DNA of 64,000 nt, taken from an uncultured Caulobacteraceae bacterium. Its GTDB lineage: Bacteria > Pseudomonadota > Alphaproteobacteria > Caulobacterales > Caulobacteraceae. The notes beneath the pieces are model-generated. The model was given only the letters and a program-made list of their open reading frames with translations. It searched no databases and was not told the origin of the DNA. Shown here piece after piece: positions 22,527 through 45,789 of this stretch. The stretch covers positions 32,601 through 96,600 of the forward strand of contig CAXSDV010000003.1 of NCBI GenBank assembly GCA_964235945.1, given 5' to 3'. Position numbers and translations under genes: made by a program. Each line of letters starts with the position of its first letter. Position 1 is the first letter of the stretch.

Positions 22527-22883
22527 TTGAGAACCGTCCTGACCGCCGCCCTCGCCGCGGCCTGCGTGTGCGCCGCCGCGGCGCCCGCCTCCGCCTCGCC
22601 CTACGCGATCGACAAGCTGCACGACCGCGAGAACCGCATCCAGGACGCGGTGGACCAGCGCCGCGCGTCCACCCGGGTGGGCGACCAGCTGATCCGGGTC
22701 AAGAAGCTGGAGGAGCGGATGCGCGCGCGCCACGGGTCCAACCTGACGCGCGCCGATTTCGAGGTCCTGAACGCCAGGCTCGACGCGCTCGAAGGCGTGC
22801 GCCACCGCCACCGCCGCGGCGCCGACCACGGCCGCAGCGGGCCCCACCAGATCACGACCACCACGACCACCGTCAGGCGTTGA
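22527..22883 (+). CDS. Small secreted hypothetical protein
   Basis: 118 aa. TTG start preceded by AGGGGGA. Signal peptide MRTVLTAALAAACVCAAAAPASA, a charged helical middle, and a His/Arg- and Thr-rich tail (ITTTTTTVRR). Confidence 0.55.
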   Translation: MRTVLTAALAAACVCAAAAPASASPYAIDKLHDRENRIQDAVDQRRASTRVGDQLIRVKKLEERMRARHGSNLTRADFEVLNARLDALEGVRHRHRRGADHGRSGPHQITTTTTTVRR

Positions 22884-24621
22884 CCTCCAGGGCGGCCGCC
22901 AGCGCGCCGGCGTAGCGGGCGCGGGCGCGCAGGAGCCGCGCGTGCTCGGCCGGCCAGCCCGCGTGGGCGTCCGCCGCCATGCTCCACAGGCCGAGCTGGA
23001 AGGCGAGGTAGGCGAGCGTGTGGAAGGCGAGCCGTTCGCCGTCCACCACGAGGTCCCGCGCGAGGCGGGCGGCGGCCGCGGCGTCCAGGGCGAGTTCCAC
23101 CTGGGCGCCCGCCACGTCCCAGGCCACGTCCTGGGCGCCGATCAGGTCGTGGGCGCGGGCGTGGTCCAGCGCGTCGGTCTTGAGCAGGCCGCCGTCGGGC
23201 GGGAGCATCCACTCGTGCAGGTGCAGCCGGTTGTCGGTCCACACGCGCCGGCCGCGCGCGGCGAGGGCGGCCAGGCGCGGCTCCCACGCGTCCAGCGGTC
23301 GCGCGGCCTCTTCGCCCAACGCTTCCGCGGCGTTGGCGCGCGCCATGGCGAGGAGGGTCCGCAGGTCCGCCCCGTCGCCTTCCCCGGCGGGGAAAGCCCG
23401 CGCGCGGAAGGCGAGGTGGGCGCCCACCGCGGCGGCGGCGCGTCCGCGGTCGGCGGGCGTGTCCGCCAACGGGCGCGCGCCCTCCAGCCAAGGCTCCACC
23501 AGCCAGCCGCCGCGCAGCGCCAGCGGCTCGGGCGAGAGGCCGGCGGCGTGCAGCGCCCGGGCGCGGGCGAGCTTGGCCGCGCCCTCGCGGCCGCCCAGCC
23601 CCGCCCACTTGAGGCGGAACGCGCCGCGCGCCGTCTCCAGGCGGAACTTGAGCCGCTCGGCGCCGGCGTCCACGGCGGGCCAGTGCGCCTCCTCCGCGTA
23701 GAGGCGCGCGCGCCAGGCCCCGCCGGACAGGTCCTCCAGCGGGCCGAGGGCGGGGCCGACCACGTCCTCCAGTCGCCGCGCCAGCCCCCGAACCGCGTCG
23801 TGCGGGTCGAGCTCGGGACGGTCGCCGCCCGCGACGCGGCGGGTCGCCGCCCAGCGCGCGCGGCGCACCTCCCCCGCCTGCGGGCCGAGGTCGCCGGCGT
23901 GGCCGGGCAGGGCCACCAGCCGCGCGCGGTCCACGCCGGCCGCCTCCAGCGCGTCCAGCGCCGCGGCGAGGGAGGAGCCCGACAGGCCCGGTCCCTCGTC
24001 GGCCACCGCCCAGGTGCGCCCGGCCTCGCGCCGCCACTCGGCCAGGAGCGGCGGGGCGACGGCGAGCCGGCGGTCGAACGGGTGGCCGACCGGGCGCACG
24101 GTGACGGGAACGGGGGCGCCCACCGCCGCCGCCGCCATGGCCGCTAGCCCCGCGCCGATGGAGCGCAGGCCCAGCACCCGGCTTTGCGCGTCCAGCCCCG
24201 CGGCGCGCGCGGCCTCCGCGTGGCCCTCGGGCTGGAGCGCATAGAAGGCGTAACCCTCCGCCAGCCGCACCTCGACCTCCGGCGGGAAGGGCAGGGCGGC
24301 CAGCGCTTCGGCCGAGGCGGGCGCGCACGGCGCGTCGCCCTCGAAGCCCGCGCGCCAGGAGGCGTCCACACGCCGGGCGAGATCGGTCAGCCACGTCATC
24401 GCGGCGGCGTGCAGAGGGGTGCGCGCGTCTTCGCCGGTATCCGCGAACTCGGCGTCGACCAGGCCCTGGACGAGGGCGGCGGCGTCCACGAAGGCGTCCG
24501 TCAGCCGGGCGTGGCGCGCCGCTCCGGCGGGCGCGGCCGCCAGCCCCGCCAGTTCGGCGCGGATGCGGCGGAGTTCGGCGGCGGGGTCCAGCCGGGAGAC
24601 GGCGTCGCCGTAGACGATCAC
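22873..24621 (-). CDS. Hypothetical 582-aa two-domain protein (C-terminal half weakly kinase/APH-like); last gene of the ino1 operon
   Basis: Part of ORF 22873..24819, starting at GTG 24621 (GTGA overlap with the upstream phosphatase stop). The C-terminal half has FRLKWAG...HLHEWMLPPDGGLLKTDALDH..DLIGAQDVAWD, reminiscent of aminoglycoside/choline-kinase-type folds. The mid-region AVADEGPGLSGSS is weakly PRPP-loop-like. Function unknown. Confidence 0.6.
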   Translation of the reverse strand: MIVYGDAVSRLDPAAELRRIRAELAGLAAAPAGAARHARLTDAFVDAAALVQGLVDAEFADTGEDARTPLHAAAMTWLTDLARRVDASWRAGFEGDAPCAPASAEALAALPFPPEVEVRLAEGYAFYALQPEGHAEAARAAGLDAQSRVLGLRSIGAGLAAMAAAAVGAPVPVTVRPVGHPFDRRLAVAPPLLAEWRREAGRTWAVADEGPGLSGSSLAAALDALEAAGVDRARLVALPGHAGDLGPQAGEVRRARWAATRRVAGGDRPELDPHDAVRGLARRLEDVVGPALGPLEDLSGGAWRARLYAEEAHWPAVDAGAERLKFRLETARGAFRLKWAGLGGREGAAKLARARALHAAGLSPEPLALRGGWLVEPWLEGARPLADTPADRGRAAAAVGAHLAFRARAFPAGEGDGADLRTLLAMARANAAEALGEEAARPLDAWEPRLAALAARGRRVWTDNRLHLHEWMLPPDGGLLKTDALDHARAHDLIGAQDVAWDVAGAQVELALDAAAAARLARDLVVDGERLAFHTLAYLAFQLGLWSMAADAHAGWPAEHARLLRARARYAGALAAALEVNA

Positions 24622-25136
24622 GGGGCGGCGGCGTCCTCGCGCAGGTGGCGGTAGGCGATCGCCGCGAAGGCGTCGAAGTCCGGCGCGGCGATCCCCCGCG
24701 CCTCCAGCCACGCCGCCCAGGCCCCGTACTGGGCGGGCGAGGGTGAGACCTGCCAGCGGGCGGCCTTGGCGCGCTCCAGCGCGTCCAGGGGGGTCGCCCC
24801 CGCGTCCACCAGCGCGCACAGCGCCAGCAGGGCCGAGCGGCCCACCCCTTCGCGGCAGTGGACCACCGCGCGGCGGCCGCGCACGAACGCCACGCCCCGG
24901 TCGAGGTCGGCGCCCGTGACGGCGTGGTGGTCGGGGGTGGGCAGGTGCAGGAAGGCGATCCCCGCCGCCGCCAGCGCCCCCGGGTCGTCGCGGGCCTCCG
25001 CGCGCAGGTCCACGGCCGCGGTCACGCCCTGCGCGCCCAGGGCGGGCCAGGCCGAGGTCGGCAGCTCGCCCGCCACGGCGAGGTCCGGCGTGATCCAGTC
25101 GAGGTTCAACGCCCCGGCCGGCGCGGCCCCGGTCAC
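24618..25136 (-). CDS. Dual-specificity / PTP-like phosphatase (HCX5R)
   Basis: Part of ORF 24618..25808, starting at GTG 25136 (GTGA overlap). 172 aa with the active-site loop VVHCREGVGRSAL. Confidence 0.8.
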   Translation of the reverse strand: MTGAAPAGALNLDWITPDLAVAGELPTSAWPALGAQGVTAAVDLRAEARDDPGALAAAGIAFLHLPTPDHHAVTGADLDRGVAFVRGRRAVVHCREGVGRSALLALCALVDAGATPLDALERAKAARWQVSPSPAQYGAWAAWLEARGIAAPDFDAFAAIAYRHLREDAAAP

Positions 25137-26053
25137 GCCGGGGCGGACCGGGGCGCGGCGGCGGCGGCGGGCGCCGGGGCGTAGCGCTCCACCATCTCCG
25201 TGCAGAAGTCGGCGAAGGCGGACGGGTCGCGCGGGGCGCTGGTGTGGTGCGGCTCGATCCCCAGCTCCTCCGGGGTGAAGCAGAAGGTCGTGGTGACGTC
25301 GAAGCCGGCCAGCGCCTCCATCTGCCGGTCGAACCAGTCGAGCGCGCCCGGGCGCAGGCGGTCGGCCCAGGAGAGGCCCGTGCGCAGGTAGGTGACGCCC
25401 AGCTCCTTCATCCAGCGCACCGCGTCGTCCAGCCGGTGGTCCTCGTAGTGGAACCATTGGCACAGCCCCAGGCCGTCGGGGCCGGCGTGGGGCCGGAAGG
25501 CCTCCAGCGCCTTCTTGGGCCGGCCGGTCTCGTCCAAGAGGCCCATGGCGAAATGGCGGTAGTAGGAGGAGCCCTCCGCCTCCTTGTGGCGGGTGGTCGC
25601 CTCCCAGGCCTGGGGCAGGTCGTAGAGCGAGTACCAGTGGATGCGCGGCGCCCGGCCGACCAGAAGTTCGGCGCTGCGCGTGACGCCCCAGGCGGCCACC
25701 TCCTCCGCCCCGAAGGAGGAGACGCCCACCTCGCTGACCCACAGGGGCCGGTCGCCGATCACCGGGCGGATCTCGTCGAGCTTGCTCGGCCAGTCGTGGA
25801 TCGACCACAGGTTCCAGTCGAGCGGGAAGCCGTGCACGGCCACCACGTCGATCTCGTCCATCGCGCCGTAGCCGGTCAGTCGGTTGATGAAGGAGGGGTC
25901 GATGGGGCTCATCCCGCCCAGCACCCGGGGCAGGCGCGGGTTGGCGGCCTTGATCGCGCGGCCGCCCGCCTTCACGAGGTCGCCGAACTTGGACCAGTCC
26001 GGGTCGACGCCGGGGTCCCAGTGGCTCTTGTTGTTGGGCTCGTTCCAGATCAT
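25133..26053 (-). CDS. Clan GH-A TIM-barrel glycosidase-like protein, apparently circularly permuted
   Basis: Part of ORF 25133..26623, starting at ATG 26053. Begins MIWNEPNN (acid/base NEP motif), then VAVHGFP, LWVSEVG (nucleophile-type E) and HWYSLYD. Only after these come the segments that normally lie at the N-terminus: MKELGVTYLRTGLSWADRL...DWFDRQM...FDVTTTFCF...FADFCTEMVERY. Confidence 0.65.
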   Translation of the reverse strand: MIWNEPNNKSHWDPGVDPDWSKFGDLVKAGGRAIKAANPRLPRVLGGMSPIDPSFINRLTGYGAMDEIDVVAVHGFPLDWNLWSIHDWPSKLDEIRPVIGDRPLWVSEVGVSSFGAEEVAAWGVTRSAELLVGRAPRIHWYSLYDLPQAWEATTRHKEAEGSSYYRHFAMGLLDETGRPKKALEAFRPHAGPDGLGLCQWFHYEDHRLDDAVRWMKELGVTYLRTGLSWADRLRPGALDWFDRQMEALAGFDVTTTFCFTPEELGIEPHHTSAPRDPSAFADFCTEMVERYAPAPAAAAAPRSAPA

Positions 26054-26064
26054 CGCCGCTTCGA

Positions 26065-26679
26065 TCAAGGGCGGGGCTCCTGTGGGATGGCCGGGGCCAG
26101 GGCGTTGACGCGCAGCACCTTGGCCCCCCAGTCGCCGGTGACGACGGTGGTGACGGAGGCGGGCGAGATCTCGAGGCGGTGGTGCAGGTCCAGGCCGATT
26201 CCCAGCCACCAGCACACCAGCGCCTTGACGATGTCCGAGTGGCACACGGCCACCACCGTCCCGTCCGGGTGGGCGGCCGCCATCTCCTGCACGGCGCGGG
26301 CGGCGCGCACCTGCGCCTCGCCCAGGCTCTCGCCGTTCGGCGGGCGGTTGAGCGAGCGGCGCTCGTTCCAGGCGGTCCAGCGCGGGTCGGCTTGCAGTTC
26401 GTCGAAGGTCATCCCCGTCCAGTCGCCGAAGTCGACCTCGACCAGGCCGGGCGTCTCCACCAGCGGGGCGCCCAGCGCCTCGGCCAGGGGGGCGGCGGTC
26501 TCCCGCGCGCGCTGGAGCGGGCTCGTGTGGACGGCGTCGGCGCCCTCGGGGATCAGCGTGGCGACCCGGCGCGCCTGGGCGTGGCCCTCGTCGGACAGGC
26601 CCACCCCCTCCATGCGCCCGCACAGCACCCGGTTCAGCCGGCCGTGCGTCCCGTGGCGCACGAGGTGCAGGAGGGTCAC
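26065..26679 (-). CDS. Histidine phosphatase family protein (phosphoglycerate-mutase-like)
   Basis: Part of ORF 26065..26862, starting at GTG 26679 (GTGA overlap with the ino1 stop). [11 protein letters not shown] (RHG motif), [19 protein letters not shown]. Confidence 0.85.
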
Positions 26680-27788
26680 GCCGGCCCCGCGATGAAGGCC
26701 TCCACCTTGGCGCGCGCCTCCTCGTCGGTGAACTGCACGGCCGGGCTCTTCATGAACCAGGCGGAGGGGCCCTCCAGCGCGCCGCCCACCCCGCGGTCGA
26801 GCGCCAGCTTGGCGCAGCGCACCGCGTCGATCACCACGCCGGCGCTGTTGGGGCTGTCCCACACCTCCAGCTTGAGCTCGATGTTGAGCGGCACGTCGCC
26901 GAAGGTCGTGCCCTCCAGGCGGATGAAGGCGAACTTCCGGTCGGTCAGCCAGGGCACGAAGTCGCTGGGGCCGACGTGGACGTCGCCGGCGGGCAGGGGC
27001 GTCTCCAACTGGCTGGTGACGGCCTGGGTCTTGCTGATCTTTTTGGACTCGAGCCGCTCGCGCTCCAGCATGTTCTGGAAGTCGGCGTTGCCGCCCACGT
27101 TGAGCTGGTAGGTGCGGTCCAGCCGCACGCCGCGCTCGCGGAACAGGTTGGCCAGCACCCGGTGGACGATGGTGGCGCCCACCTGGCTCTTGATGTCGTC
27201 GCCCACGATGGGCAGGCCCGCCGCTTCGAAGCGCGCGCGCCAGGCGGGGTCCGACGCGATGAACACCGGCACGCAGTTGACGAAGCCGCAGCCCGCCGCC
27301 AGCGCCGCCTCCGCGTAGTGCTCCGTGGCCGCCTGGCTGCCCACGGGCAGGTAGGAGATCACCACGTCCGCTCCCGCCTCGCGCAGGGCGGCGGCCACGT
27401 CGCAGGGCGCTTCGGCCGCTTCGGGCACCTCGTCCTTCAGGTACTTGCCGATGCCGTCCAGCGTCGGCCCCCGCCGCACGACCACGCCGCGGGGCTCGGG
27501 CCGGGCGAACACGTGGGTGTTGTTGGGGCCGGCGAAGATCGCCTCCGACACGTCGCGCCCCACCTTGGCGGCCGACACGTCAAAGGCGGCGGCCACCTCG
27601 ATGTCCTCGATGCGGTAGCCGCCCAGGTCCGGGTGCATGAGCCCCGGGACGGGCGCGTTGGAGCGCACGCCCGAATAGTGCGCCAGCCCCTGCACGAAGG
27701 AGGAGGCGCAGTTGCCCACGCCCACGATCCCCACGCGCAGCTTGCGGCGCGACGGTTCGGTCGAGGGGGGGTGCAGCGATCCGTCCAT
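26676..27788 (-). CDS. ino1: myo-Inositol-1-phosphate synthase
   Basis: 370 aa. [112 protein letters not shown]. Near-collinear with mycobacterial/archaeal-type Ino1 as recalled. Confidence 0.93.
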
Positions 27789-27870
27789 CCGTGTCCGTAC
27801 GGTCAGCCTCGGGAAGCTTTGTAGCCTAGACGGACGGGCCCGCCCCCGCCAGCGGGTTTGTTGATCCGCC

Positions 27871-27896
27871 GGAACGGGTTATGACAAGGCCACGTT
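27871..27896 (+). promoter_or_regulatory. Consensus EcfG-type general-stress promoter (GGAAC-N17-CGTT)
   Basis: GGAAC gggttatgacaaggcca CGTT is a perfect match to the alphaproteobacterial EcfG consensus. It lies 34 nt upstream of the ATG at 27930 in the ino1-divergent intergenic region. Confidence 0.7.
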
Positions 27897-27898
27897 TC
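27873..27898 (-). promoter_or_regulatory. Reverse-strand reading of the same site: GAAAC-N17-CGTT facing ino1
   Basis: The site is a near-palindrome (GGAACG...CGTTTC). On the minus strand it reads GAAAC gtggccttgtcataacc CGTT, with one mismatch in the -35, about 85 nt upstream of the ino1 ATG (27788). Confidence 0.3.
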
Positions 27899-27929: not shown

Positions 27930-28199
27930 ATGTCCGCCGCCGAAACCATCATCGACCACGACCAGATCAAGAAGTGGGCCGAGTCGCGCGGCGGCCGCCC
28001 CTCCAAGGTGCAGACCAAGGACGCCCACGACGGTTCGGGCATCCTGCGGTTCGATTTCCAGGAGAAGGACGAGAACCTAGAGGAGATCTCCTGGGAGGAG
28101 TTCTTCCAGATCTTCGACGACAACAAGCTCGCCTTCCTCGAGCAGGACAAGACCGCCAGCGGCGCCACCAGCCGCTTCTTCAAGTTCGTGAAAAGGTAG
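27930..28199 (+). CDS. Small acidic conserved hypothetical protein (stress-regulon type)
   Basis: 89 aa: MSAAETIIDHDQIKKWAESRGGRPSKV...ILRFDFQEKDENLEEISWEEFFQIFDDNKLAFLEQD. I recall similar small proteins widely in Alpha/Betaproteobacteria, often mis-annotated. Visibly lower GC than the flanks. EcfG motif upstream, and SD GGAGAAG before the ATG. Confidence 0.7.
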   Translation: MSAAETIIDHDQIKKWAESRGGRPSKVQTKDAHDGSGILRFDFQEKDENLEEISWEEFFQIFDDNKLAFLEQDKTASGATSRFFKFVKR

Positions 28200-28221
28200 G
28201 CGTCAATGGAGCGACCCGCGC

Positions 28222-29331
28222 GTGGCTGAGACCGTCCTGATCACCGGCGGGGCCGGCTTCATCGGCCGTTACGTGGCCGACGAGCTTCTCGCCCGGGGCT
28301 GCCACGTGCGGGTGCTCGACTCGCTGATCGAGCAGGTCCACGGCGGCCGGGGCCGGCCGCCGGAACTGTCGAAGGAGGTAGAGCTCGTCGTGGCCGACGT
28401 GCGCGACGAAACGGAGGTGCTCAAGGCGCTCCACGGCGTGGACAGCGTGGTCCACCTCGCCGCCGAGGTGGGGGTGGGCCAGAGCATGTACGCGGTGGAC
28501 CGCTACACCTCCGTCAACGACCACGGCACCGCGGTGCTGTTCCAGCAGCTGATCGCCAAGCCCGTGCGGCGGGTGGTGACGGCCTCCTCCATGTCGATCT
28601 ACGGCGAGGGGCTGTACCGCGACGCGGACGGCGCCTTGCACGAAGAGGTGGTGCGTGGGGGCCGCAACGCCGACGGGAGCTGGGACCCGCAGGACGCCCG
28701 GGGCCGCCCGCTCACGCCGGCGCCTACGCCCGAGTGGAAGCGTCCGACGCTGGCCAGCATCTACGCCCTGGGCAAGTACGTGCAGGAGCGCATGACGCTG
28801 ACGCTCTGCCCGCCCTACGGCATGGAGTGCTCGGCCCTGCGCCTGTGGAACGCCTACGGGCCGGGCCAAGCGCTCTCCAACCCCTACACGGGCGTGCTGG
28901 CGATCTTCTCCTCGCGCCTCGCCAACGGCCAGGCCCCGCTCGTGTTCGAGGACGGGATGCAGCAGCGCGACTTCGTGCACGTGCGCGACGTGGCGCGCGC
29001 CTTCGCCGCCGCGCTCTACGAACCCCGGGCGGACGGCCAGGTGTTCAACATCGGCTCGGGCGACGTATTCACGGTCAACCAGGTGGCCGCCGCGGTGGCC
29101 AAGGCCATGGGCGTGGACGCCGAGCCGCAGGTCGCCGGCAAGGCGCGCACCGGCGACATCCGCCACTGCATCCCCGACATCTCCAAGGCGCGCGGCGAGC
29201 TGGGCTTCGCGCCGAGGGAGGACTTCATGGCGGGCCTCGCCGAGCTCGCCGAATGGGTCGGCCGCCAGGAGGCGGTGGACAACGTGGCCCACGCCGCCAA
29301 GGAGCTGGAGACGCGGGGGCTGGTCGTATGA
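28222..29331 (+). CDS. NAD-dependent epimerase/dehydratase (extended SDR) with a large internal insertion
   Basis: 369 aa, GTG start. [27 protein letters not shown] (YxxxK), and a ~40-aa insertion (DADGALHEEVVRGGRNADGSWDPQDARGRPLTPAPTP). Confidence 0.8.
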   Translation: MAETVLITGGAGFIGRYVADELLARGCHVRVLDSLIEQVHGGRGRPPELSKEVELVVADVRDETEVLKALHGVDSVVHLAAEVGVGQSMYAVDRYTSVNDHGTAVLFQQLIAKPVRRVVTASSMSIYGEGLYRDADGALHEEVVRGGRNADGSWDPQDARGRPLTPAPTPEWKRPTLASIYALGKYVQERMTLTLCPPYGMECSALRLWNAYGPGQALSNPYTGVLAIFSSRLANGQAPLVFEDGMQQRDFVHVRDVARAFAAALYEPRADGQVFNIGSGDVFTVNQVAAAVAKAMGVDAEPQVAGKARTGDIRHCIPDISKARGELGFAPREDFMAGLAELAEWVGRQEAVDNVAHAAKELETRGLVV

Positions 29332-30410: not shown

Positions 30411-30468
30411 CCTTTCCCCCACGCAGCACGACGACCCGACCGCCTCACGGACGGGCGAAGGACATGCC

Positions 30469-32435: not shown

Positions 32436-32455
32436 GGGGCGGCGCGCGCCGCCCC
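32436..32455. terminator. Perfect 20-nt GC palindrome between convergent genes
   Basis: ggggcggcgc|gcgccgcccc starts immediately after the Gfo/Idh/MocA stop, 12 nt before the DJ-1 stop. Likely a bidirectional hairpin terminator, though there is no U-tract. Confidence 0.5.
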
Positions 32456-32467
32456 CCGACGGCCGCC

Positions 32468-33034: not shown

Positions 33035-33069
33035 GGGGCGCTCCTGGAGGTCGGGGATCAGGCCGGCTC

Positions 33070-33095
33070 AACCGGCGTCCGCGGCGGGACGTTCC
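33070..33095 (-). promoter_or_regulatory. EcfG-type promoter-like motif upstream of the DJ-1/PfpI gene, one mismatch
   Basis: The reverse strand reads GGAAC gtcccgccgcggacgcc GGTT (N17; -10 GGTT instead of CGTT), 36 nt upstream of the ATG at 33034. Confidence 0.4.
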
Positions 33096-33099
33096 TCCT

Positions 33100-34185: not shown

Positions 34186-34196
34186 CTCCTCGTCCC

Positions 34197-38907: not shown

Positions 38908-39378
38908 CTAGGGCGCGGTGGAGCGGACGGCGAACTTCGTGCGCACGCGGCCGGCGTGGGCGAAGTTCAGCGTCACGGGCACGGTGTCGCCGGGCTTGAG
39001 CGCGTGCCTGAGCCCCATGAGCATGAGGTGGCGCCCGCCCGGGGCCAGCCGCGCCTCGCCGCCCGCAGGCACGTCCAGGCCGGCCACGGGCGCCATGTGG
39101 GACATGGGTCCCATGGGCCCGCCCACCGTCATGCTCTCGTGCAGCTCCACCCGGGCGGCGGCCGGGCTCTGCGCGGAGATCAGCCGGTCGGGGGTGCGGC
39201 CGGTGTTGACCAGGCGCGCATAGCCCACGCCGTTGGGCAGGCCGGCGGGGACCGGCCGGCTCCAGGCCCCCTCCACCCGCACCCCCGCGGGCGCGGCGAG
39301 GGCGGGCGCGGCGACGGCCCCCGCGAGAGCGGCCCCGAGGACCATGGCGAGCGGGAGGGCGCGGCGAAGACGGGTCAT
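38908..39378 (-). CDS. Copper chaperone PCu(A)C (DUF461)
   Basis: Last 156 codons of ORF 38908..40167, starting at ATG 39378. Signal peptide, then GAWSRP...GVGYARLVNTG..DRLI, H.S...GGPMGPMSHM (Met/His Cu site), PGGRHLMLMGL. Confidence 0.85.
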   Translation of the reverse strand: MTRLRRALPLAMVLGAALAGAVAAPALAAPAGVRVEGAWSRPVPAGLPNGVGYARLVNTGRTPDRLISAQSPAAARVELHESMTVGGPMGPMSHMAPVAGLDVPAGGEARLAPGGRHLMLMGLRHALKPGDTVPVTLNFAHAGRVRTKFAVRSTAP

Positions 39379-39493
39379 GCCCGGCAGCGTTAAGGCCGCG
39401 ACCCCCGCGTGTCGATTGCGCGCGGCGCCCGCGCCCTTCCGGCGGCGGGCGGGCGCGGCTATGGCTGCGCTCGAACGGCGGGGAGTTCTGAAG

Positions 39494-40330
39494 ATGACGT
39501 GGCTGCAGGCCCTGGTGCTGGCCGTCGTGCAGGGGATCACCGAGCTCTTCCCCGTGTCCAGCCTCGGCCACGCGGTGGTGCTGCCCGCGCTCCTGGGCTG
39601 GAGGAACGTCGACCAGTCCAGCGACACCTTCCTGCCCTTCCTGGTGGTCATGCACCTGGGCACGGCGGTGGCGCTGTTCGCCTTCTTCTGGAGCGACTGG
39701 CGCGCCTTCGGCGAGGCGGTGGTGCTCAACCGCGGCCCGCGCGCGGCGGCGGAGCGGCGGCTGTTCTGGCGCATCGTGGTGGCGACGATCCCCGCGGTGA
39801 TCGTGGGCGCGGGGCTGCACAAGCTCCTGCGCGAGGCCTTCGCCAGCCCGATGATCGCCGCCGGCTTCCTGATCGTGAACGGCTTCATCCTGTTCGCGGT
39901 GGAGCGGTTGAAGAAGCCCGCCAGGAAGTCCGTCGACGCCCTGAGCTGGGCGGACGCGCTGATCGTGGGCGTGTGGCAGTGCCTGGCGCTGATCCCCGGC
40001 GTGTCGCGCTCGGGCTCCACCATCGTGGGCGGGCTGGTGCAGGGGCTGGACCACGAGGAGGCCGCGCGCTTCTCCTTCCTGATGGCGGTGCCGGTGATCC
40101 TGGGGGCCACCGTGTTCGAGGTCCCCAAGCTGCTCCACGCCCACCCGGGCGCGAACGTGCTGGCCATGGCCGCCGTGTCGGGGGTGGTCTCGGGCGTCGT
40201 CGCCTACGCCAGCCTGTGGACGCTGATGCGCTGGTTCAAGCGCCACGAGTTCAAGGCGCTGGACCCCTTCGCGATCTACTGCTGGATCGCGGGGGCGGGC
40301 GGCCTCGCCGTGCTGGCGCTGCACCGCTGA
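39494..40330 (+). CDS. uppP: Undecaprenyl-diphosphate phosphatase
   Basis: Part of ORF 39233..40330, starting at ATG 39494 (SD GGGGAG). LVLAVVQGITELFPVSSLGH, PGVSRSGSTI, FSFLMAVPVILGA are BacA/UppP motifs. Confidence 0.92.
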   Translation: MTWLQALVLAVVQGITELFPVSSLGHAVVLPALLGWRNVDQSSDTFLPFLVVMHLGTAVALFAFFWSDWRAFGEAVVLNRGPRAAAERRLFWRIVVATIPAVIVGAGLHKLLREAFASPMIAAGFLIVNGFILFAVERLKKPARKSVDALSWADALIVGVWQCLALIPGVSRSGSTIVGGLVQGLDHEEAARFSFLMAVPVILGATVFEVPKLLHAHPGANVLAMAAVSGVVSGVVAYASLWTLMRWFKRHEFKALDPFAIYCWIAGAGGLAVLALHR

Positions 40331-40341: not shown

Positions 40342-40953
40342 ATGCGCCCGTCCATCCTGTCCGCCGTGGCCCTGGCCGTCGTCCCCGCCGCGGCGTGGGC
40401 GGCGACCCCGGCCGTGCAGCCGCTCGCCTTCGCCCGGCCGGAGACGGCCGCTCCCTCCACCTTGCACGTGGTCGTGCCCGAGGTCGACGCGGACGGGACG
40501 CTGCCGCTTCCCTACAGCGGCTACGGCAAGAACATCGCCCCCGCCGTGCGCTGGAGCGGCGGTCCCGCCGGCGTGCGCGCCTGGGCGCTGATGGTGGAGG
40601 ACCCGGACGGCGGCCCGCCCACCCCGGTGATCCACTGGCTCGCCTGGAACATCCCCGCCGGGCTCGACGGCCTGTCGCGGGGCACGCACAACGAGGCGGA
40701 GCCCAAGCGCACCGCCGGCTTGCGCCAGGGGATCAACAGCCACGGGGGCCTGGGCTGGACGGGGCCGCACCCGCCGGTGGGCGACCCCGCGCACCACTAC
40801 CACGTGGAGGTGTTCGCCCTGGACCGGCCGCTCGGGCTCAAGGGCGGGGCCGACCGCGAGGCGCTGATCCGCGCGCTCAAGGGGCGGGTGCTGGCGCGCG
40901 GCGAGACGGTGGCCCTCTACGCCCAGGCGCCCGACAAGGCGCGCGGCCGCTGA
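40342..40953 (+). CDS. YbhB/YbcL family Raf-kinase-inhibitor-like (PEBP) protein, secreted
   Basis: Part of ORF 39409..40953, starting at ATG 40342 (SD GGAG). Signal peptide, then MVEDPD, IHWLAWNIP, GPHPPVGD.AHHYHVEVFALD. Confidence 0.85.
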   Translation: MRPSILSAVALAVVPAAAWAATPAVQPLAFARPETAAPSTLHVVVPEVDADGTLPLPYSGYGKNIAPAVRWSGGPAGVRAWALMVEDPDGGPPTPVIHWLAWNIPAGLDGLSRGTHNEAEPKRTAGLRQGINSHGGLGWTGPHPPVGDPAHHYHVEVFALDRPLGLKGGADREALIRALKGRVLARGETVALYAQAPDKARGR

Positions 40954-40960
40954 GCGTCGT

Positions 40961-41941
40961 TCAGAGCGGGCGCAGGGTGCGGCGCAGGGTGGGCGCGTCC
41001 ACCGCCCCCCAGCCGTACTTGTAGGGCTCGCGCCCGCGAAGCCACCGCGCCTCGCCGCAGCCCTCGCGCGCCGCGCCCTCCAGCGTTTCGGCGATCAGCA
41101 GCGTGCCGGGGCCCAGGGCGACGTGGGCCGGGTCGAAGCCGGTCAGGTACATGTGGACGGCCGCCGCGTCCTGCAGCGCCAGCAGCACGGCGGCGGGCGC
41201 CCCGTCGGCCAGGCGCAGGGTGCGCAGGCGCAGGCTCCCCTCCGCCCGCCAGCCGGGGGCGGCGTCGCGCAGGAAGCCCTGCATGAGCGCATCCCCGAGC
41301 ACGCCCGGTTCGCCCTCGAGCGCCCAGCGGCGCGCGTGCAGGTCGAACAGGGCGTCCAGCGCCGCGCCCACGCCCGCCGCGTCCGCGACCTCCACCGTCC
41401 AGCCGCCCGCGCGCTCGGCCTTGCGCCGGGTGTAGTCGAGCTTCTTGCGCGGCTTGGCGAGCATGGCGCCCAGGCCGTCCGTTCCCGTCAGCGGCGAGAC
41501 GGGGCAGGTCTCGTCCTCCCCTGGCTCATCCGACCAGCCGCGCGGGGCGGGGGCGGCGAGGAGCGCGCTCACCGGGCGGAGCTGGCGCAGCTCCACCCGG
41601 TCGGCCCCGCGGCGGCGGGCCTCGGCGCACCCGGCCGCGAGGGCGAGGGCGGCGGCTTCCGGCGCGTCCGGGGCGAAGGCGCCGTCGTTGAAGTCGGTCG
41701 GGCCCGTGCCGGCGAGCAGCGCCGCCCCCTCCCAGGTGAACAGGGGCAGGAGGCCGGTGAGGCGCCCCCCCTCGCGCACGGCGGCGGCGAACACGCGGTC
41801 GGCCGCGTGGGTCCGCGCCCAGGCCAGACCGCAAGCGGGGGACTGGAAGGGCGTGGCGCGAGGGTCCGCACGGTGCAGCGCCTCCCACTCGGGCGCCAGC
41901 GCCTCCAGGCCGGCGAGATCGGGGACGACGGCGGTGTCCAC
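40961..41941 (-). CDS. GNAT acyl/acetyltransferase, CelD/BioF2-like (FemAB-type fold)
   Basis: 326 aa. APEWEALHR....TPFQSP.., KKLDYTRRKAER, LHARRW, and a C-terminal WLRGREPYKYGWGA. Confidence 0.75.
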   Translation of the reverse strand: MDTAVVPDLAGLEALAPEWEALHRADPRATPFQSPACGLAWARTHAADRVFAAAVREGGRLTGLLPLFTWEGAALLAGTGPTDFNDGAFAPDAPEAAALALAAGCAEARRRGADRVELRQLRPVSALLAAPAPRGWSDEPGEDETCPVSPLTGTDGLGAMLAKPRKKLDYTRRKAERAGGWTVEVADAAGVGAALDALFDLHARRWALEGEPGVLGDALMQGFLRDAAPGWRAEGSLRLRTLRLADGAPAAVLLALQDAAAVHMYLTGFDPAHVALGPGTLLIAETLEGAAREGCGEARWLRGREPYKYGWGAVDAPTLRRTLRPL

Positions 41942-41946
41942 GCCGG

Positions 41947-43014
41947 TCAGGCCGCGGGCCGGCGCAGGTCGGCTCCGTCCGCGGCCAAGCGGCGATACAG
42001 GTGGAGATAGCCGTCGGTCATGGCGCGCAGGGGAAAGCGGGAGCGGGCGCGGGCGCGGATCGTCGCGCGGTCGAAGCCGTCCAGGTCGGCGAGGGCCTGC
42101 GCCATGCCCGACGCGTCGTCCACCAGCCGACCGGTGACGCCCTCCTCCACCGCGTCCACCAGCGCGCCGCTGCGGAAGGCCACCACCGGCGCGCCCGCCG
42201 CCGCCGCCTCGCGCGCGACCAGGCTGGAGGTCTCGGGCGCGGTGGAGGCGATCAGCACGCCGCGGGTGGCGGCCAGCAGGCGCCGCTTGCGCGCCCCCGC
42301 CACCGGCCCGATCCAGCGCCGCCGCGCGTCCAGCCGGGGGGCGACCTCCTCCTCGAAATAGCGGCGGTGGGCGGCGTAGGGAAACACCTCGCCCGCCACC
42401 AGCAGGTCGCGGCCGGCCAGTCGGGCGGCGTCCAGCGCCAGGTGCACGCCCTTCTCCGGGCAGATGCGGCCCAGCATCAGGTGGAACCGCCGCGGCGTCA
42501 GGCGCAGTGCGAAGCCGTCCACGTCCACGCCGTTCTCGACTGGGGCGGCCAGCGCCACGCCCGCCGGCGCGCCCGCCGCCTGCCGGGCGGAGACGGGGAC
42601 CAGCGCCACCGCGCCCCGCGCCGGGCGCAGCGCGTCGGGCGCGTACCAGCCCAGCGGCAGGTGGAGGGACACGACCGCGGGCGGCACCGCCGCAGGTCCC
42701 GTCGTCGGCAGGTAGCTGTCGAAGTCGATCCCGTGGAGGTGGATCACGTCCGCCCGCGGCGCGACCTCCGCCAGGCGCGCGCGCACGGCGGCGTGGACGC
42801 GGGCGCGGGCGTCCGCGGTGATCTCCCCCGCCGCCGCGGGGACGGGCAGGAGCTCGCCCGCGGGCGTCGACCCCTCCGCCGCGATCACCAGTGAGCGTCC
42901 GCCCGCGGCGACCACCGCGCGATCGCAGGCGGAGAGCACCTGCTCGGCCCCGCCCACGGGGTCGGGCCCCACCGGCGCGAACGGATAGGCGACCTGGACG
43001 ACCACGAGGCTCAC
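41947..43014 (-). CDS. Glycosyltransferase family 4
   Basis: 355 aa, GTG start overlapping the PIG-L stop (GTGA). FPYAAHRRYFEEEV motif region, GRICPEKG, and the EX7E-type block STAPETSSLVAREAAAAGAPVV. Confidence 0.8.
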   Translation of the reverse strand: MSLVVVQVAYPFAPVGPDPVGGAEQVLSACDRAVVAAGGRSLVIAAEGSTPAGELLPVPAAAGEITADARARVHAAVRARLAEVAPRADVIHLHGIDFDSYLPTTGPAAVPPAVVSLHLPLGWYAPDALRPARGAVALVPVSARQAAGAPAGVALAAPVENGVDVDGFALRLTPRRFHLMLGRICPEKGVHLALDAARLAGRDLLVAGEVFPYAAHRRYFEEEVAPRLDARRRWIGPVAGARKRRLLAATRGVLIASTAPETSSLVAREAAAAGAPVVAFRSGALVDAVEEGVTGRLVDDASGMAQALADLDGFDRATIRARARSRFPLRAMTDGYLHLYRRLAADGADLRRPAA

Positions 43015-43847
43015 GCCGCCCGCACCCCGTCCCCCGGCGCGGCGTCGCCCAGCACCGCGTCCGCGTGGCCGCGCCAGACCGCCGAGGTCAGCGCCCAGCC
43101 GTAGCGGTCGTACAGCGCCTCGCCCGGCGGGCAGGGGGCGGACCAGTCATAGTCGGGGGCGCGGCGCAGGCGCTCGACGCGCACGGGGAAGTTGGCCAGC
43201 ACCCCCGCCTGGCTCGCGAAGGCGGCGTAGGCGGCGCGCTTGGCGGCGGCTTGAGTCCGGTTCAGGCGCACCACCGTCTCCGGCCGGTGCGGGTCGGTGT
43301 GGAAGCGGTTGGGTCGTAGCCGCCCGAGGCGCCCGTGGTAGCCCGCGAACTCCAGCCGAACGGGAGCGTCCGCGCCCAGGCGGCGGCAGGCGAGGTGGAC
43401 GGCCAGGGCGGCGGCGTCGTGGTCCGGGTGGCCCCCCTCGTAGGCGTGGACCAGCACCGCCGCCTGCCCGGCGAGGTCGGCGGCCAGCCGGTCCACCAGC
43501 TCGGGCAGGCGTGCGCTCAGCCCCTGGTCGCGCAGGCCGTAGGCGATCCGCCGCACCGGGCGCGCGCCCAGCGCTTCGAGGGCGGCGTCCAGCTCCGCCC
43601 GGCGGGCGGCGGCGTAGGCGTCGGCGGTGGCGAAGCCCGCGCGCCGGGCGTCGCCCATGTCCTCGGGCGCGCCGTCCGTCAGGTGGATCAGGGTCAGCCG
43701 GGACAGGGCGGGGAGGCGAGAGCCCGCGCCCAGGGTCTCGTCGTCCGGGTGCGCCGCCACCAGCGCCACGGGGGCGTCCACCGCCGCGCCCGTCGCCAGG
43801 GCGCGCAGCAGGGCCTCGGCGTCGGCGTCGGCGGCGGCGTCCGTCAC
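43011..43847 (-). CDS. PIG-L / LmbE family N-acetylglucosaminyl deacetylase
   Basis: 278 aa, GTG start overlapping the methyltransferase stop. VAAHPDDETLG, ...HAYEGGHPDHDA are the PIG-L zinc-site motifs. Confidence 0.85.
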   Translation of the reverse strand: MTDAAADADAEALLRALATGAAVDAPVALVAAHPDDETLGAGSRLPALSRLTLIHLTDGAPEDMGDARRAGFATADAYAAARRAELDAALEALGARPVRRIAYGLRDQGLSARLPELVDRLAADLAGQAAVLVHAYEGGHPDHDAAALAVHLACRRLGADAPVRLEFAGYHGRLGRLRPNRFHTDPHRPETVVRLNRTQAAAKRAAYAAFASQAGVLANFPVRVERLRRAPDYDWSAPCPPGEALYDRYGWALTSAVWRGHADAVLGDAAPGDGVRAA

Positions 43848-44626
43848 GGCCGACGGGCGGGGTGGACGGCGCCCACGGGGCGGGGCGGGTCCGTCACCTG
43901 GCAGACGAACACCTCGGGCTCGGGATGGGCGGTGATGCGGAAGCCCGCGCTGCGGAGCATGGCGGCGGAGGCGGCCATGTTGGGGGCGAACCAGTTGGTC
44001 CAGTCGTGGCTGTAGCTGTGCTCGATGAAGTGCAGCTTGGGCCAGCCCGGCTGGTCGAACATCGCCGTCTCGGTGATGTCGTAGTCGGGCTCGGGCGTCA
44101 TCTCCTCCTGCGAGCCGCGCTGCAGCGACTGGTAGAGCAACAGGTCGCCCGCCACGTGCTCGCGGATCAGGTCCAGCGCCAGCAGCGGGTGGCGCAGGTG
44201 GTACAGCACGCCCATGAAGATCACGAGGTCGAACCGCTCCCCCAGCGCGCCCACGTCGTAGACGTCGAGCGCCCGGAACTCGACGTCCAGCCCCAGCACC
44301 TCCGCGGCGAAGCGCGCCTGGGCGAGATAGTCCTCGTCATGGTCGGTGGCGAGCACGCGCGAAGCCCCGCGACGCTTCATCTCCAGGGCGTAGAAGCCGC
44401 CGTTGGTGCCGAGGTCGAGCACGCTCTTGCCCGTCATGTCCGCGGGCAGGGCGTGGGCGAAGCCCTGGAACTTGACGTTGGGATAGTCGCCCAGGAAGTG
44501 GTCGGGGGCGGTGCGCACGCCCGCGAGGTCCATGTTGTGGAACCAGGGACCGAGCGCCTTCACCCGCGCCTCGATCTCCTCGCGCGGAAGGGTCGTGGCC
44601 GGCAGGGGGCGGGCGTCGTCGGGCAT
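43844..44626 (-). CDS. Class I SAM-dependent methyltransferase, CmoB-like (TIGR04290-type as I recall)
   Basis: 260 aa. LGPWFHNMDL..V....HFLGDYP..KF, SVLDLGTNGGFYALEM (SAM motif I), FDLVIFMGVLYHLRHP. Confidence 0.75.
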   Translation of the reverse strand: MPDDARPLPATTLPREEIEARVKALGPWFHNMDLAGVRTAPDHFLGDYPNVKFQGFAHALPADMTGKSVLDLGTNGGFYALEMKRRGASRVLATDHDEDYLAQARFAAEVLGLDVEFRALDVYDVGALGERFDLVIFMGVLYHLRHPLLALDLIREHVAGDLLLYQSLQRGSQEEMTPEPDYDITETAMFDQPGWPKLHFIEHSYSHDWTNWFAPNMAASAAMLRSAGFRITAHPEPEVFVCQVTDPPRPVGAVHPARRP

Positions 44627-44636
44627 GCGGCGGGTC

Positions 44637-45731
44637 TCAGGTCAGGGCGGGCCGGAGGGCGGGGGCGCCCTCCAGCAGGGCGAGGAGTTCGTCGGCGCGG
44701 TGGGCGCTCGTGTGGCGCGCCAGCACCTTGGCGCGGGCGGCCTCGGCCACGGCGAGGAGCCGCTCGGGCGCAAGGTCCAGGGCGGCGGCCGCGTCGTCGG
44801 GCCCGTCGGCCAGCAGCACCTCCTCGCCGGGGGTGAAGAAGTCGCTCAGGCCGTCCCAGGCGTCCGACAGGAGCGGGGCCCCGCACAGCGCGGCCTCGAA
44901 CATGCGGCCGGACGGGCACCAGCCCATGGCCGCCATGTCCGCCCGCGTCACGTTCAGCGTCAAGCGCGACGAGGAATAGAAGGCGGCGTGCTCGGGCGGC
45001 GGCAGGTGGCGCACGAAGAAGGTGTTGCCCGTCCACGGGAAGTCGGCCGGATAGCCCGAGCCCGCCAGCACGAATTTGAGGTCGGCCCGGCGGCGGGCGG
45101 GCTCCACGAACAGCGCCTCCACCCCCGCCTGACGGTCGGCGGCGTAGGTGCCGATGTAGCTGAGGTCGCAGCGGAAGCGCGGGTCGGGCGCCGCCGGACG
45201 GTGGGCGGCGGGATCCGCGTGGCCGTAGAGCGGCGCGCACCGGCGCGCGCCCAGCCGCTCGCGCAAGGCGTCCAGCGCGCGCCCGCCCGTATAGCTCAGC
45301 ACGAGGTCGAAGCCGCCCAGCCCCTGCGCCGGCAGGTAGTCGGGCCGCGCGCCCTGCGCCAGGCGCGCCAGGGTGACGGGGGTGTCCATGTCGTAGAACA
45401 CCGCCCGCGCGGGGGAGTCGAGCAGGAGGTCGCTCGCCGCCTGGGCGTCCGGCTGGTAGCTCGTGACCAGGCCCGCGTCCGCGTCGCGCAGCTCGCGCCG
45501 GGCGCGGGGCAGGACGTCGGCCCAGTCGCGGTAGAGCACGAGTTCGGCGTCCCGGCCCAACTCGGACAGGTCGTGCAGGTCGCGGTGGTCGGCGTAGAAC
45601 GACTGGTCGCGCTCGAAGAACACCACGCGCACGCCCCGGGCGGCCAGGGCCCGCACCAGGCCGCGCCACAGGGTGGCGTGCCCGTTGCCCCAGGAGGACG
45701 ACACCGTCAGGCCGAACACGACCAGCTTCAA
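44637..45731 (-). CDS. CgeB-type glycosyltransferase family protein, paralog 4
   Basis: Part of ORF 44637..46508. TTG 45731 (or GTG 45740) gives (M)KLVVFGLTVSSSWGNGHATLWRGLVRALAARG, DLSYIGTYAADR, SGRMFEAALCGAPLLSD. Closest to paralog 3. Confidence 0.7.
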   Translation of the reverse strand: MKLVVFGLTVSSSWGNGHATLWRGLVRALAARGVRVVFFERDQSFYADHRDLHDLSELGRDAELVLYRDWADVLPRARRELRDADAGLVTSYQPDAQAASDLLLDSPARAVFYDMDTPVTLARLAQGARPDYLPAQGLGGFDLVLSYTGGRALDALRERLGARRCAPLYGHADPAAHRPAAPDPRFRCDLSYIGTYAADRQAGVEALFVEPARRRADLKFVLAGSGYPADFPWTGNTFFVRHLPPPEHAAFYSSSRLTLNVTRADMAAMGWCPSGRMFEAALCGAPLLSDAWDGLSDFFTPGEEVLLADGPDDAAAALDLAPERLLAVAEAARAKVLARHTSAHRADELLALLEGAPALRPALT

Positions 45732-45763
45732 CCCGCCCACCCCCGCTCCGGCACGTCCGTCAC

Positions 45764-45789
45764 AACGTGAGTACGTGCGTCGTTGTTCC
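45764..45789 (-). promoter_or_regulatory. Consensus EcfG-type general-stress promoter (GGAAC-N17-CGTT) upstream of the CgeB4-MT-PIG-L-GT4-GNAT operon
   Basis: The reverse strand reads GGAAC aacgacgcacgtactca CGTT, a perfect consensus, in the 83-nt gap 24-33 nt upstream of the candidate start codons. Confidence 0.65.

Follow-up and report, generated by a model that had tools for sequence, protein, structure and literature searches.

The 64,000-nucleotide stretch of DNA analysed here (hereafter the window), from an uncultured Caulobacteraceae bacterium, carries between 22.8 and 45.8 kb a cluster of genes that combines a myo-inositol-phosphate synthase gene, ino1, with genes for glycosyltransferases (GTs) and sugar-tailoring enzymes and with two EcfG-type promoter motifs. 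A first-pass annotation had described this region as an undescribed stress-induced system with an enzyme logic like that of mycothiol or glycosylphosphatidylinositol (GPI) synthesis; its observations were partly confirmed here and its interpretation was partly supported. Genes were called from third-position GC content and start-site likelihood; at ∼75% G+C, lists of open reading frames (ORFs) of the window are crowded with false frames. All products encoded between 20.7 and 49.9 kb were scanned against Pfam, and the cluster proteins were also scanned against NCBIfam. This profile annotation reproduced every protein on the first-pass gene list, with all fifteen-plus proteins recovered. The genes and promoter motifs, ordered by position in blocks a (up to 27788), b (27930 to 37491) and c (from 40961), are the following:

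22873-24621, minus strand: 582-aa two-domain protein, without Pfam, NCBIfam or PDB sequence match
24618-25109, minus strand: dual-specificity phosphatase (DSP; PF22785/PF22784/DSPc) with HCREGVGRS as the HCX5R motif
25133-26068, minus strand: 311-aa protein, without Pfam match; predicted permuted TIM barrel of clan GH-A (PslG/GH39-like)
26065-26679, minus strand: HisP, histidine phosphatase of branch 1 (PF00300, 1e-49), RHG motif at residue 8
26676-27788, minus strand: ino1, bacterial-type myo-inositol-1-phosphate (inositol-3-phosphate) synthase (PF01658, 5e-36)
27871-27896, plus strand: EcfG-type promoter GGAAC-N17-CGTT, intergenic, 34 nt upstream of the start of the 89-aa ORF
27930-28199, plus strand: 89-aa acidic protein, first gene after the EcfG motif, without Pfam or NCBIfam match
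28222-29331, plus strand: SDR1, extended short-chain dehydrogenase/reductase (SDR), GalE/4-epimerase-like, with a ∼45-aa insertion; GxxGxxG and YxxxK present
29328-30410, plus strand: SDR2, extended SDR, CDP-tyvelose 2-epimerase-like (nucleotide-sugar C2 epimerase type)
30469-31434, plus strand: ZnADH, Zn-dependent alcohol dehydrogenase family (Pfam, NCBIfam)
31431-32435, plus strand: GFO, Gfo/Idh/MocA oxidoreductase (Pfam; best NCBIfam match IolG, 79 bits)
33100-34185, plus strand: GT4a, glycosyltransferase with EX7E motif; nearest solved relatives, all weak, PimA, GlgM and MshA
34197-35318, plus strand: Cge1, CgeB-type (PF13524) soluble GT-B glycosyltransferase (Pfam)
35315-36427, plus strand: Cge2, CgeB-type (PF13524) soluble GT-B, translationally coupled to Cge1
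36424-37491, plus strand: Cge3, CgeB-type (PF13524) soluble GT-B, translationally coupled to Cge2
40961-41941, minus strand: GNAT, acyltransferase of PF13480 (Acetyltransf_6, CelD/BioF2-type; Pfam), without NCBIfam match
41947-43014, minus strand: GT4b, glycosyltransferase matching 7fg9/8x3q and UDP-Glc:tetrahydrobiopterin glucosyltransferase (70-83 bits); MshA 31 bits
43011-43847, minus strand: PIG-L/LmbE-family de-N-acetylase, AHPDDE and HPDH motifs intact
43844-44626, minus strand: MT, S-adenosylmethionine (SAM) methyltransferase with CmoB-like fold (TIGR04290, 363.7 bits, cut-off 300)
44637-45740, minus strand: Cge4, fourth PF13524 GT-B and first gene of block c (Pfam)
45764-45789, minus strand: EcfG-type promoter GGAAC-N17-CGTT, intergenic, 24 nt upstream of the Cge4 start

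The ino1 product scored 527 bits against TIGR03450 (equivalog cut-off 638) and is clearly a bacterial myo-inositol-phosphate synthase. HisP, translationally coupled to ino1 and located directly behind it in most of the examined loci with ino1, is a candidate inositol-phosphate or glycosyl-inositol-phosphate phosphatase. The translational coupling that had been claimed for the ino1 block was found, as a 4-nt overlap, at three of the four junctions of block a, while the remaining junction is a 23-nt gap. The DSP gene occurred, among the mapped loci, only in the Caulobacteraceae loci L002-L004 (loci are numbered with the prefix L) and is a lineage-specific accessory gene. The catalytic motifs of HisP, PIG-L, both GT4s, both SDRs, the DSP phosphatase, the glycoside hydrolase (GH)-like 311-aa protein and the kinase-like 582-aa protein were all intact, and no membrane segments were predicted in any core protein.

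In block b, SDR2 gave full-length matches to 1orr and 9rl0 (264-271 bits, E 1e-77 to 1e-79). The GFO start was moved to 31431, where a GTG overlaps the ZnADH stop codon, and the Rossmann motif was regained; the weak best matches of ZnADH, which is always paired with GFO, include scyllo-inosose 3-dehydrogenase IolM (82 bits). The four Cge paralogues were 26-49% identical to each other, and Cge1-3 were 55-84% identical to their own orthologues in other families. That such old paralogues are each kept as their own orthologue argues for four distinct transfer steps. The nearest solved relatives of GT4b act on small soluble acceptors. PDB sequence searches gave no match for PIG-L and no relative for the PF13480 GNAT.

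The 311-aa protein is the most conserved protein of the system. It was 66-92% identical in nearly all syntenic loci, with an outlier at 34% (L020), and among its homologues, at least 8000 in number, the best 120 were all at least 70% identical. A tblastn search of PLSDB placed homologues on 97 plasmids, 66 of them from Sinorhizobium and the others from Roseomonas, Azospirillum, Rhizobium, Paracoccus and Bradyrhizobium. With phmmer, residues 3-167 paired with PslG residues 132-303, and residues 187-297 with PslG residues 8-129. An AlphaFold2 (AF2) model (pLDDT 82) comprised eight beta/alpha units, in which strand 1 carries an NEP motif and strand 4 carries E113; N9, E10, P11 and E113 are invariant, and NEP and E113 lie three strands apart in the model. 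In clan GH-A the acid/base residue is on beta4 and the nucleophile on beta7, so the placement on strands 1 and 4 points to a circular permutant. The predicted strand order is beta4-beta8 followed by beta1-beta3, not the canonical beta1-to-beta8, as deduced from the phmmer alignment together with the topology of the AF2 model and the placement of the motifs. Foldseek, a sequential aligner, returned weak generic TIM-barrel matches alone for this barrel. The NEP acid/base and SE(V)G nucleophile motifs and the predicted eight-stranded barrel resemble PslG/GH39-type members of clan GH-A, but the 311-aa family is permuted, has only ∼305 aa and lacks a signal peptide and a Pfam model. The first-pass description of the protein as TIM-barrel glycosidase-like agrees with the PslG alignment, the invariant NEP/E113 and the AF2 barrel, and the protein is probably a glycosidase or transglycosylase. 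As a side observation, this 'beta-xylosidase' family is a candidate new GH family or subfamily.

The 582-aa protein was modelled by AF2 with a pLDDT of 91.6. Its C-terminal ∼280 aa matched LicA choline kinase in Foldseek (E 4e-7, probability 1.0), with further matches to NahK (N-acetylhexosamine 1-kinase), homoserine kinase II and APH(4), and K325, D463, D483 and D502 were invariant in 50 homologues. The bilobal kinase fold and the conserved Lys/Asp residues of the model bear out the earlier label "kinase-like", and the C-terminal part is predicted to be a small-molecule kinase of the choline-kinase/APH/NahK (ELK) fold. The N-terminal ∼290 aa form an alpha/beta domain to which no family could be assigned and which carries an invariant VxDEGPGLSGSS motif. 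PDB sequence searches gave no match, neither for the whole protein nor for a profile of the N-terminal domain, so a PRPP-binding/PRTase-like reading of its 'VVDEGPGLSGSS' motif stays a guess. A homologue of the 582-aa protein lies within the cluster in Roseomonas, Azospirillum, Sinorhizobium (SMb20248) and L018/L032. Homologues of the 89-aa protein (49-59% identity) were likewise found inside the cluster in L004, L012, L017 and L033, the last a metagenome-assembled genome (MAG) of Xanthomonadales.

A scan of a genome collection with GT4a yielded 25 loci, and all window proteins were mapped onto the loci by tblastn. Extra loci, from Microvirga, Azospirillum brasilense, another alphaproteobacterial genome and the Xanthomonadales MAG, came from look-ups of 311-aa and 582-aa homologues. 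The closest loci belonged to uncultured Caulobacteraceae MAGs, at 70-92% protein identity. A set consisting of ino1, HisP, the 311-aa and 582-aa genes, SDR1, SDR2, GT4a, Cge1-3, MT and ZnADH/GFO was clustered, in reshuffled order, in Caulobacteraceae, Roseomonas, Alsobacter, Sphingomonadaceae, Lichenihabitans, Microvirga, Azospirillum brasilense, Sinorhizobium, an unclassified alphaproteobacterial MAG and the Xanthomonadales MAG, and the cluster comprises 12-18 genes. Thus, seven or more alphaproteobacterial lineages and a gammaproteobacterial MAG keep the linkage. The Roseomonas cluster illustrates the reshuffling: there, kinase-Cge3-Cge2-HisP-ino1 diverges from SDR1-SDR2-GT4a-Cge1-MT-GH-ZnADH-GFO. 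The MT gene belongs to the ino1 operon in Roseomonas, Azospirillum, Microvirga, Alsobacter and L032, and a Cge4 orthologue follows ino1-HisP in L012, L017, L026 and L033. The survival of linkage through shuffled gene order over wide phylogenetic depth is strong evidence for one functional unit, and the neighbourhood survey, in which the ino1/CgeB/MT core stayed clustered across lineages, shows that the adjacency noted in the first-pass annotation is not due to chance.

Experimental information on regulation comes from Sinorhizobium meliloti. The full core (Cge3/2/1, GT4a, SDR2, SDR1, ZnADH, GFO, kinase, ino1, HisP and GH) is present on pSymB of strain 2011, and in strain 1021 the orthologous set SMb20239-SMb20251 has 42-71% identity and GGAAC...GTT-type promoters. 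Unlike the window, the S. meliloti locus is without MT (TIGR04290), Cge4 and PIG-L/GT4b/GNAT, and has a third SDR, an F420-dehydrogenase-like protein and a pyruvyl transferase. When rpoE2 was overexpressed in strain 1021, ten cluster orthologues were up by 2.2-5.8 log2 relative to the control (Schlueter 2013, PMC3616915, Additional file 5, Tables S18/S19), with the following log ratios:

SMb20239, third SDR: 2.47
SMb20241, Cge2 orthologue: 3.24
SMb20242, Cge1 orthologue: 3.89
SMb20243, GT4a orthologue: 3.85
SMb20245, SDR1 orthologue: 2.23
SMb20246, ZnADH orthologue: 5.82
SMb20247, GFO orthologue: 2.61
SMb20249, ino1 orthologue: 3.18
SMb20250, HisP orthologue: 3.32
SMb20251, permuted GH orthologue: 4.36

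The mapped transcription starts of SMb20245 and SMb20249 were assigned to the RpoE2 promoters GGAACAC-N13-AGGTTT and GGAACCA-N13-GGGTTT, respectively (PMC3616915, Table S19), and both sites were found independently in the DNA in the present analysis. SMb20253-20255, near the cluster, are also RpoE2-induced (PMC3616915). At 15876-18351 of the S. meliloti locus (L035), the genes for the F420-dehydrogenase-beta-like protein and the polysaccharide pyruvyl transferase adjoin that of the permuted GH. In Microvirga (L026, 14176-18997), a prkA-yeaH(DUF444)-spoVR stress/starvation operon adjoins the cluster, and behind it lie a further Zn-ADH gene and one for a 585-aa protein that is probably a kinase homologue.

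The EcfG consensus has been reported as GGAAC-N16/17-CGTT for Sphingomonas and Sphingopyxis (PMC7083833, PMC6599016). The N17 form occurred exactly twice in the window, compared with a mean of 0.25 in dinucleotide-preserving shuffles, of which 1 in 100 reached two; the N16 form was absent from the 64 kb. Both perfect motifs that had been reported ahead of blocks b and c were therefore present, but the first precedes the 89-aa ORF and not SDR1 directly. The opposite strand at 27898-27873 reads GAAAC-N17-CGTT towards ino1; as the motif ends are nearly self-complementary (GGAACG...CGTTTC), 27871-27898 may act as a bidirectional promoter. The same perfect motif was located 57-62 nt upstream of the 89-aa homologue in L004, L012 and L017. 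Altogether, the promoter regions of the cluster contained perfect EcfG motifs in L004, L012, L013, L017 and L026 and relaxed ones in L002, L003 and L018. The proposal of stress induction is borne out by the RpoE2 dependence of the S. meliloti orthologues (PMC3616915) and by the recurrence of perfect motifs in relatives; these orthologues respond jointly to RpoE2, and the promoter type is shared among the loci. By analogy, the cluster in the window is predicted to be under EcfG general-stress control.

The window differs from some relatives in its accessory genes. The PIG-L/GT4b/GNAT trio was missing at the corresponding position in L004, the closest relative with sequence there, in which the PEBP-family gene directly abuts MT-Cge4. 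It was also absent within 10 kb of the clusters of Roseomonas, Azospirillum, Microvirga and Sinorhizobium. A tblastn search of PLSDB plasmids with PIG-L gave no match, so plasmid-borne clusters do not have the PIG-L branch on the same replicon. A separate conserved operon was found in L028-L030, in which a Cge4-type gene, optional genes for a nucleotidyltransferase (NTP-transferase) and MT, and then PIG-L, GT4 and PF13480 follow each other; PIG-L was 57-67% identical, the GNAT gene was last and ino1 was not nearby. In L028 and L029 the Cge4-led operon is preceded by a perfect EcfG motif, at a distance of 53 and 61 nt, respectively. The trio was always found behind a Cge4-type gene and adjoins the ino1 core in just two lineages; in Lichenihabitans it is ∼4 kb from Cge3, and both modules seem to be present, apart from each other, on one JGI contig. 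In Alsobacter, Microvirga and the Xanthomonadales MAG, Cge4, NTP-transferase and MT are inside the ino1 operon. Because this group either belongs to the ino1 operon or heads the PIG-L operon, it bridges both modules, and we read the trio as an optional, co-regulated branch.

Another accessory gene encodes the B12-binding radical SAM protein TIGR04295, which is absent from the window. It was present in A. brasilense (L031, 706 bits) and Lichenihabitans (L016), where it replaces or accompanies SDR2 and lies between the SDR and GT4a genes, and probably also in L011, which has a gap of matching size between SDR2 and GT4a. The window MT scores above the cut-off of TIGR04290 (meth_Rta_06860); this model and TIGR04295 (B12_rSAM_oligo) are both hypothetical equivalogs with no described pathway, and TIGRFAMs reportedly counts both among the members of a conserved ∼twelve-gene 'rhizo-twelve' cassette.

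Within the span of the cluster in the window, five unrelated genes (all assigned by Pfam) were identified:

32468-33034, minus strand: DJ-1/PfpI stress protein, antisense within block b, between GFO and GT4a
37482-38846, minus strand: amidase, between blocks b and c
38908-39420, minus strand: PCuAC copper chaperone, between blocks b and c
39494-40330, plus strand: UppP/BacA, between blocks b and c
40342-40953, plus strand: PEBP-family protein, between blocks b and c

Hence the three tightly packed blocks of the first-pass annotation hold in gene content but not in contiguity, and block b does not form a single operon. Behind the GFO stop codon lies a GC-rich hairpin, and the start codons of DJ-1 and GT4a are 65 bp apart; with the antisense DJ-1 gene and this hairpin in between, the promoter at 27871 is unlikely to serve GT4a and Cge1-3. 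A third EcfG-like motif, GGAAC-N18-GTT, is located ahead of DJ-1 (33095-33070, minus strand), and in L004 the motif ahead of this gene is a perfect EcfG one. In L002 and L003 the DJ-1 gene is missing and GFO abuts GT4a; the gene is an insertion and lies outside the pathway. Of two amidase-family paralogues, that at 20746-22365 (minus strand) flanks the cluster and that at 37482-38846 interrupts it; the latter also adjoins Cge3 in L003.

Some observations were made on neighbouring genes. On the plus strand, 13260-17263 encodes in a row a HAD-UbiA fusion, GtrA, a FAD_binding_4 protein and a short-chain dehydrogenase, which resembles the pathway from decaprenyl-phospho-ribose to arabinose (DprE1/DprE2-type). 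A single-domain response regulator (17335-17700) is encoded beside a Ku protein (17946-18911, minus strand). In Sphingomonas melonis, EcfG controls Ku directly; ahead of the Ku gene of the window, a perfect EcfG motif was not seen. About 12 kb from the cluster, a second DSP-type phosphatase gene (57041-57676) is accompanied by an inositol-monophosphatase-family gene (57931-58713), which could be a HisP-independent source of free inositol. Strong coding signal without Pfam match was found for a 457-aa protein (55617-56990, plus strand) and a 229-aa protein (19405-20094, plus strand). The window also encodes a GCS2 ligase of the glutathione pathway.

Building on the gene content, the conserved linkage, the intactness of the catalytic motifs, the promoter motifs and the RpoE2-dependent expression of orthologues, all of them observed, the cluster can be read as a widespread and conserved EcfG/RpoE2-controlled system of soluble enzymes that makes a cytoplasmic or cell-associated, decorated inositol-containing oligosaccharide or glycoside under stress. 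We give this reading about even chances. What the enzymes act on and in which sequence, and what the product is and where it resides, are inferred. Ino1 would convert glucose-6-phosphate to inositol-3-phosphate, and HisP would remove the phosphate before or, more likely, after glycosylation of the inositol phosphate by a GT4, following the synthase/phosphatase logic of MshA/MshA2, GpgS/GpgP and OtsA/OtsB. SDR1, SDR2 and the ZnADH/GFO redox pair may tailor nucleotide-sugar donors or the cyclitol. GT4a and three or four CgeB-type GT-Bs would add one sugar each; in all, five or six glycosyl transfers may occur in sequence. The TIGR04290 MT would then O-methylate the product, the permuted GH-A barrel may trim or transglycosylate it, and the APH-fold kinase may phosphorylate a sugar or cyclitol intermediate. 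In the genome of the window, under the second EcfG promoter, GT4b would add GlcNAc, PIG-L would deacetylate it and the PF13480 acyltransferase would re-acylate the amine; in Sinorhizobium the product is perhaps pyruvylated. The product would accumulate in the cell or stay cell-associated during desiccation, osmotic or stationary-phase stress.

Several points weigh against this reading. Specificity cannot be read from the sequence, and the product has never been observed. The GFO-IolG and ZnADH-IolM scores are far under the cut-offs, GT4a and GT4b match MshA weakly, and most clusters lack the PIG-L branch. EcfG motifs were found neither in the intergenic regions of the Roseomonas cluster nor ahead of GT4a in the window. 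A PslG-like hydrolase, GTs, epimerases and the pyruvyl transferase of S. meliloti are typical of exopolysaccharide (EPS) loci, whose export genes can lie elsewhere; in addition, UppP is encoded within the span and the DprE1/DprE2-like arabinose cluster 6 kb upstream.

The main rival is accordingly a stress-induced surface or secreted polysaccharide (EPS, lipopolysaccharide or capsule decoration) that is primed, flipped and exported by proteins encoded elsewhere, with inositol as a minor substituent or in a separate role. We consider it possible, with a modest chance of being correct. It would account for the number of GTs (five to six), the pair of nucleotide-sugar epimerases and the PslG-like glycosidase; the pyruvyl transferase that adjoins the S. 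meliloti cluster, the RpoE2-induced neighbour SMb20253, the UppP gene in the span and the polyprenyl-phospho-arabinose-type cluster upstream fit it as well, and PF13524 proteins act as outer-core GTs of lipooligosaccharide in Acinetobacter according to the literature. However, Pfam families for Wzx, Wzy, Wza, Wzc, ABC-2 exporters and priming transferases had no match among the proteins at 22.8-45.8 kb, as the first-pass annotation had stated, and neither exporter, polymerase nor priming transferase was found in any syntenic locus examined, from eight lineages; a synthase-type membrane GT was also absent from the span and from these loci. The earlier conclusion that this is not an ordinary capsule or O-antigen locus is thereby strengthened. 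The core proteins are all soluble and the GH has no signal peptide, UppP is not kept with the cluster beyond the closest relative, and the most constant neighbour pair, ino1-HisP, is needed by no known EPS pathway. Alternatively, two or more independent stress pathways may simply share regulation and location, one for an inositol, methyl-inositol or scyllo-inositol solute (Ino1, HisP, MT, ZnADH/GFO) and one for glycan synthesis or protein glycosylation (SDRs, GT4a, Cge1-4, GH). The transcription units are indeed separate and reshuffled between genomes, ZnADH/GFO and MT could work on free inositol, and general-stress regulons mix unrelated protective functions, with DJ-1/PfpI and Ku encoded in the same window. 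Yet MT and the permuted GH switch between the ino1 operon and the GT operon from genome to genome, and Alsobacter, Microvirga and the Xanthomonadales MAG have Cge4 within the ino1 operon; without a shared pathway, such a mixture of genes in distant lineages is hard to explain, and we regard this explanation as unlikely. That unrelated operons are adjacent by chance is scarcely credible: five unrelated genes do break up the span, but the same families are linked in eight lineages, share a promoter type and respond jointly to RpoE2.

The mycothiol or GPI logic proposed in the first-pass annotation was retained in part. Ino1, GT4, PIG-L with intact motifs and an acyltransferase are encoded in one 23-kb span, and the weak best NCBIfam matches of PIG-L are BshB2/BshB1. 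The co-occurrence of an inositol-phosphate synthase, retaining GT4s, a phosphatase, a PIG-L deacetylase and an N-acyltransferase resembles mycothiol synthesis (Ino1, MshA, MshA2, MshB, MshC, MshD), and the GT4 and PIG-L pairs BshA/BshB, PIG-A/PIG-L and BtrM/BtrD of aminoglycoside synthesis are alike too. Unlike mycothiol synthesis, the cluster is without a cysteine ligase, has an acyltransferase of another family (PF13480) and adds four GT-Bs, an MT, a glycosidase and a kinase. GT4a and GT4b scored 28 and 33 bits against TIGR03449 (MshA; cut-off 462.5), and their PDB matches to MshA reached 25-31 bits; neither they nor the deacetylase are equivalogs. The MshB and MshD models had no match, and the span has neither an MshC-like (tRNA-synthetase-like) cysteine ligase, nor a BshC-type one, nor a CDP-alcohol phosphatidyltransferase or phosphatidylinositol synthase, nor a membrane-bound enzyme, all enzymes being predicted soluble. 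As the trio is also absent from most clusters and the window has a GCS2 ligase, a mycothiol- or bacillithiol-like low-molecular-weight thiol or a GPI-like glycolipid anchor is very unlikely as the product. Other candidates were rejected: the hopanoid cyclitol-ether pathway (HpnI/HpnK/HpnJ), which the PIG-L and radical SAM genes had suggested, with no hopanoid genes nearby, HpnJ/HpnR matches of 27-58 bits and ino1 left unexplained; di-myo-inositol-phosphate synthesis, for which a CDP-alcohol transferase is missing; and rhizopine or aminocyclitol synthesis, for which an aminotransferase is missing.

For an inositol-containing oligosaccharide or glycoside made by soluble enzymes, the cytoplasmic polymethylated polysaccharides of mycobacteria, namely methylmannose polysaccharides (MMP; ManT, MeT1, MeT3, MmpH) and methylglucose lipopolysaccharides (MGLP; GpgS/GpgP, Rv3030-3032), offer a parallel, with soluble GT-Bs, a SAM MT, a dedicated hydrolase and no exporter. 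MGLP synthesis begins with a synthase and a phosphatase of the histidine phosphatase family. Compared by enzyme types alone, the cluster differs from MMP and MGLP in an inositol phosphate primer instead of glycerate or mannose, in the host and in EcfG regulation.

No functional description of the cluster was found in the full-text literature searched, in agreement with the first-pass term "undescribed", although parts are already listed in the TIGR04290/TIGR04295 models and in the RpoE2 tables. There, the S. meliloti genes appear as conserved hypothetical proteins of the RpoE2 regulon. Being visible in these tables and in two NCBIfam hypothetical-equivalog models, the cluster is a known unknown and not an unseen object. 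As far as we can tell, joining the ino1 cluster, the accessory PIG-L branch and the regulon data in one testable pathway is new.

Alphaproteobacteria, including inoculant rhizobia, bacteria of the phyllosphere and opportunists like Roseomonas, depend on the general stress response to survive desiccation, osmotic stress and stationary phase. The greater part of the general-stress regulon is still annotated as hypothetical, and the cluster is among its largest coherent biosynthetic units, with a very wide distribution in many soil- and plant-associated Proteobacteria, including the tractable S. meliloti (pSymB) and Azospirillum brasilense. It also brings to light two unusual proteins, a GH-A barrel that appears circularly permuted and a two-domain protein with a predicted APH-type kinase fold, and the link to the RpoE2 data gives genes so far listed as conserved hypothetical a pathway hypothesis that can be tested. 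More speculatively, and with considerable doubt on our part, Proteobacteria may make stress-induced soluble inositol-anchored glycosides on a mycothiol-like scaffold, formed by a GT4 and dephosphorylation, extended by four CgeB-type proteins and methylated, and in some lineages bearing a deacetylated and re-acylated glucosamine. If so, these glycosides would be a new class of bacterial stress protectants, and the gene set behind them would rank among the largest uncharacterised biosynthetic units in the RpoE2/EcfG regulon.

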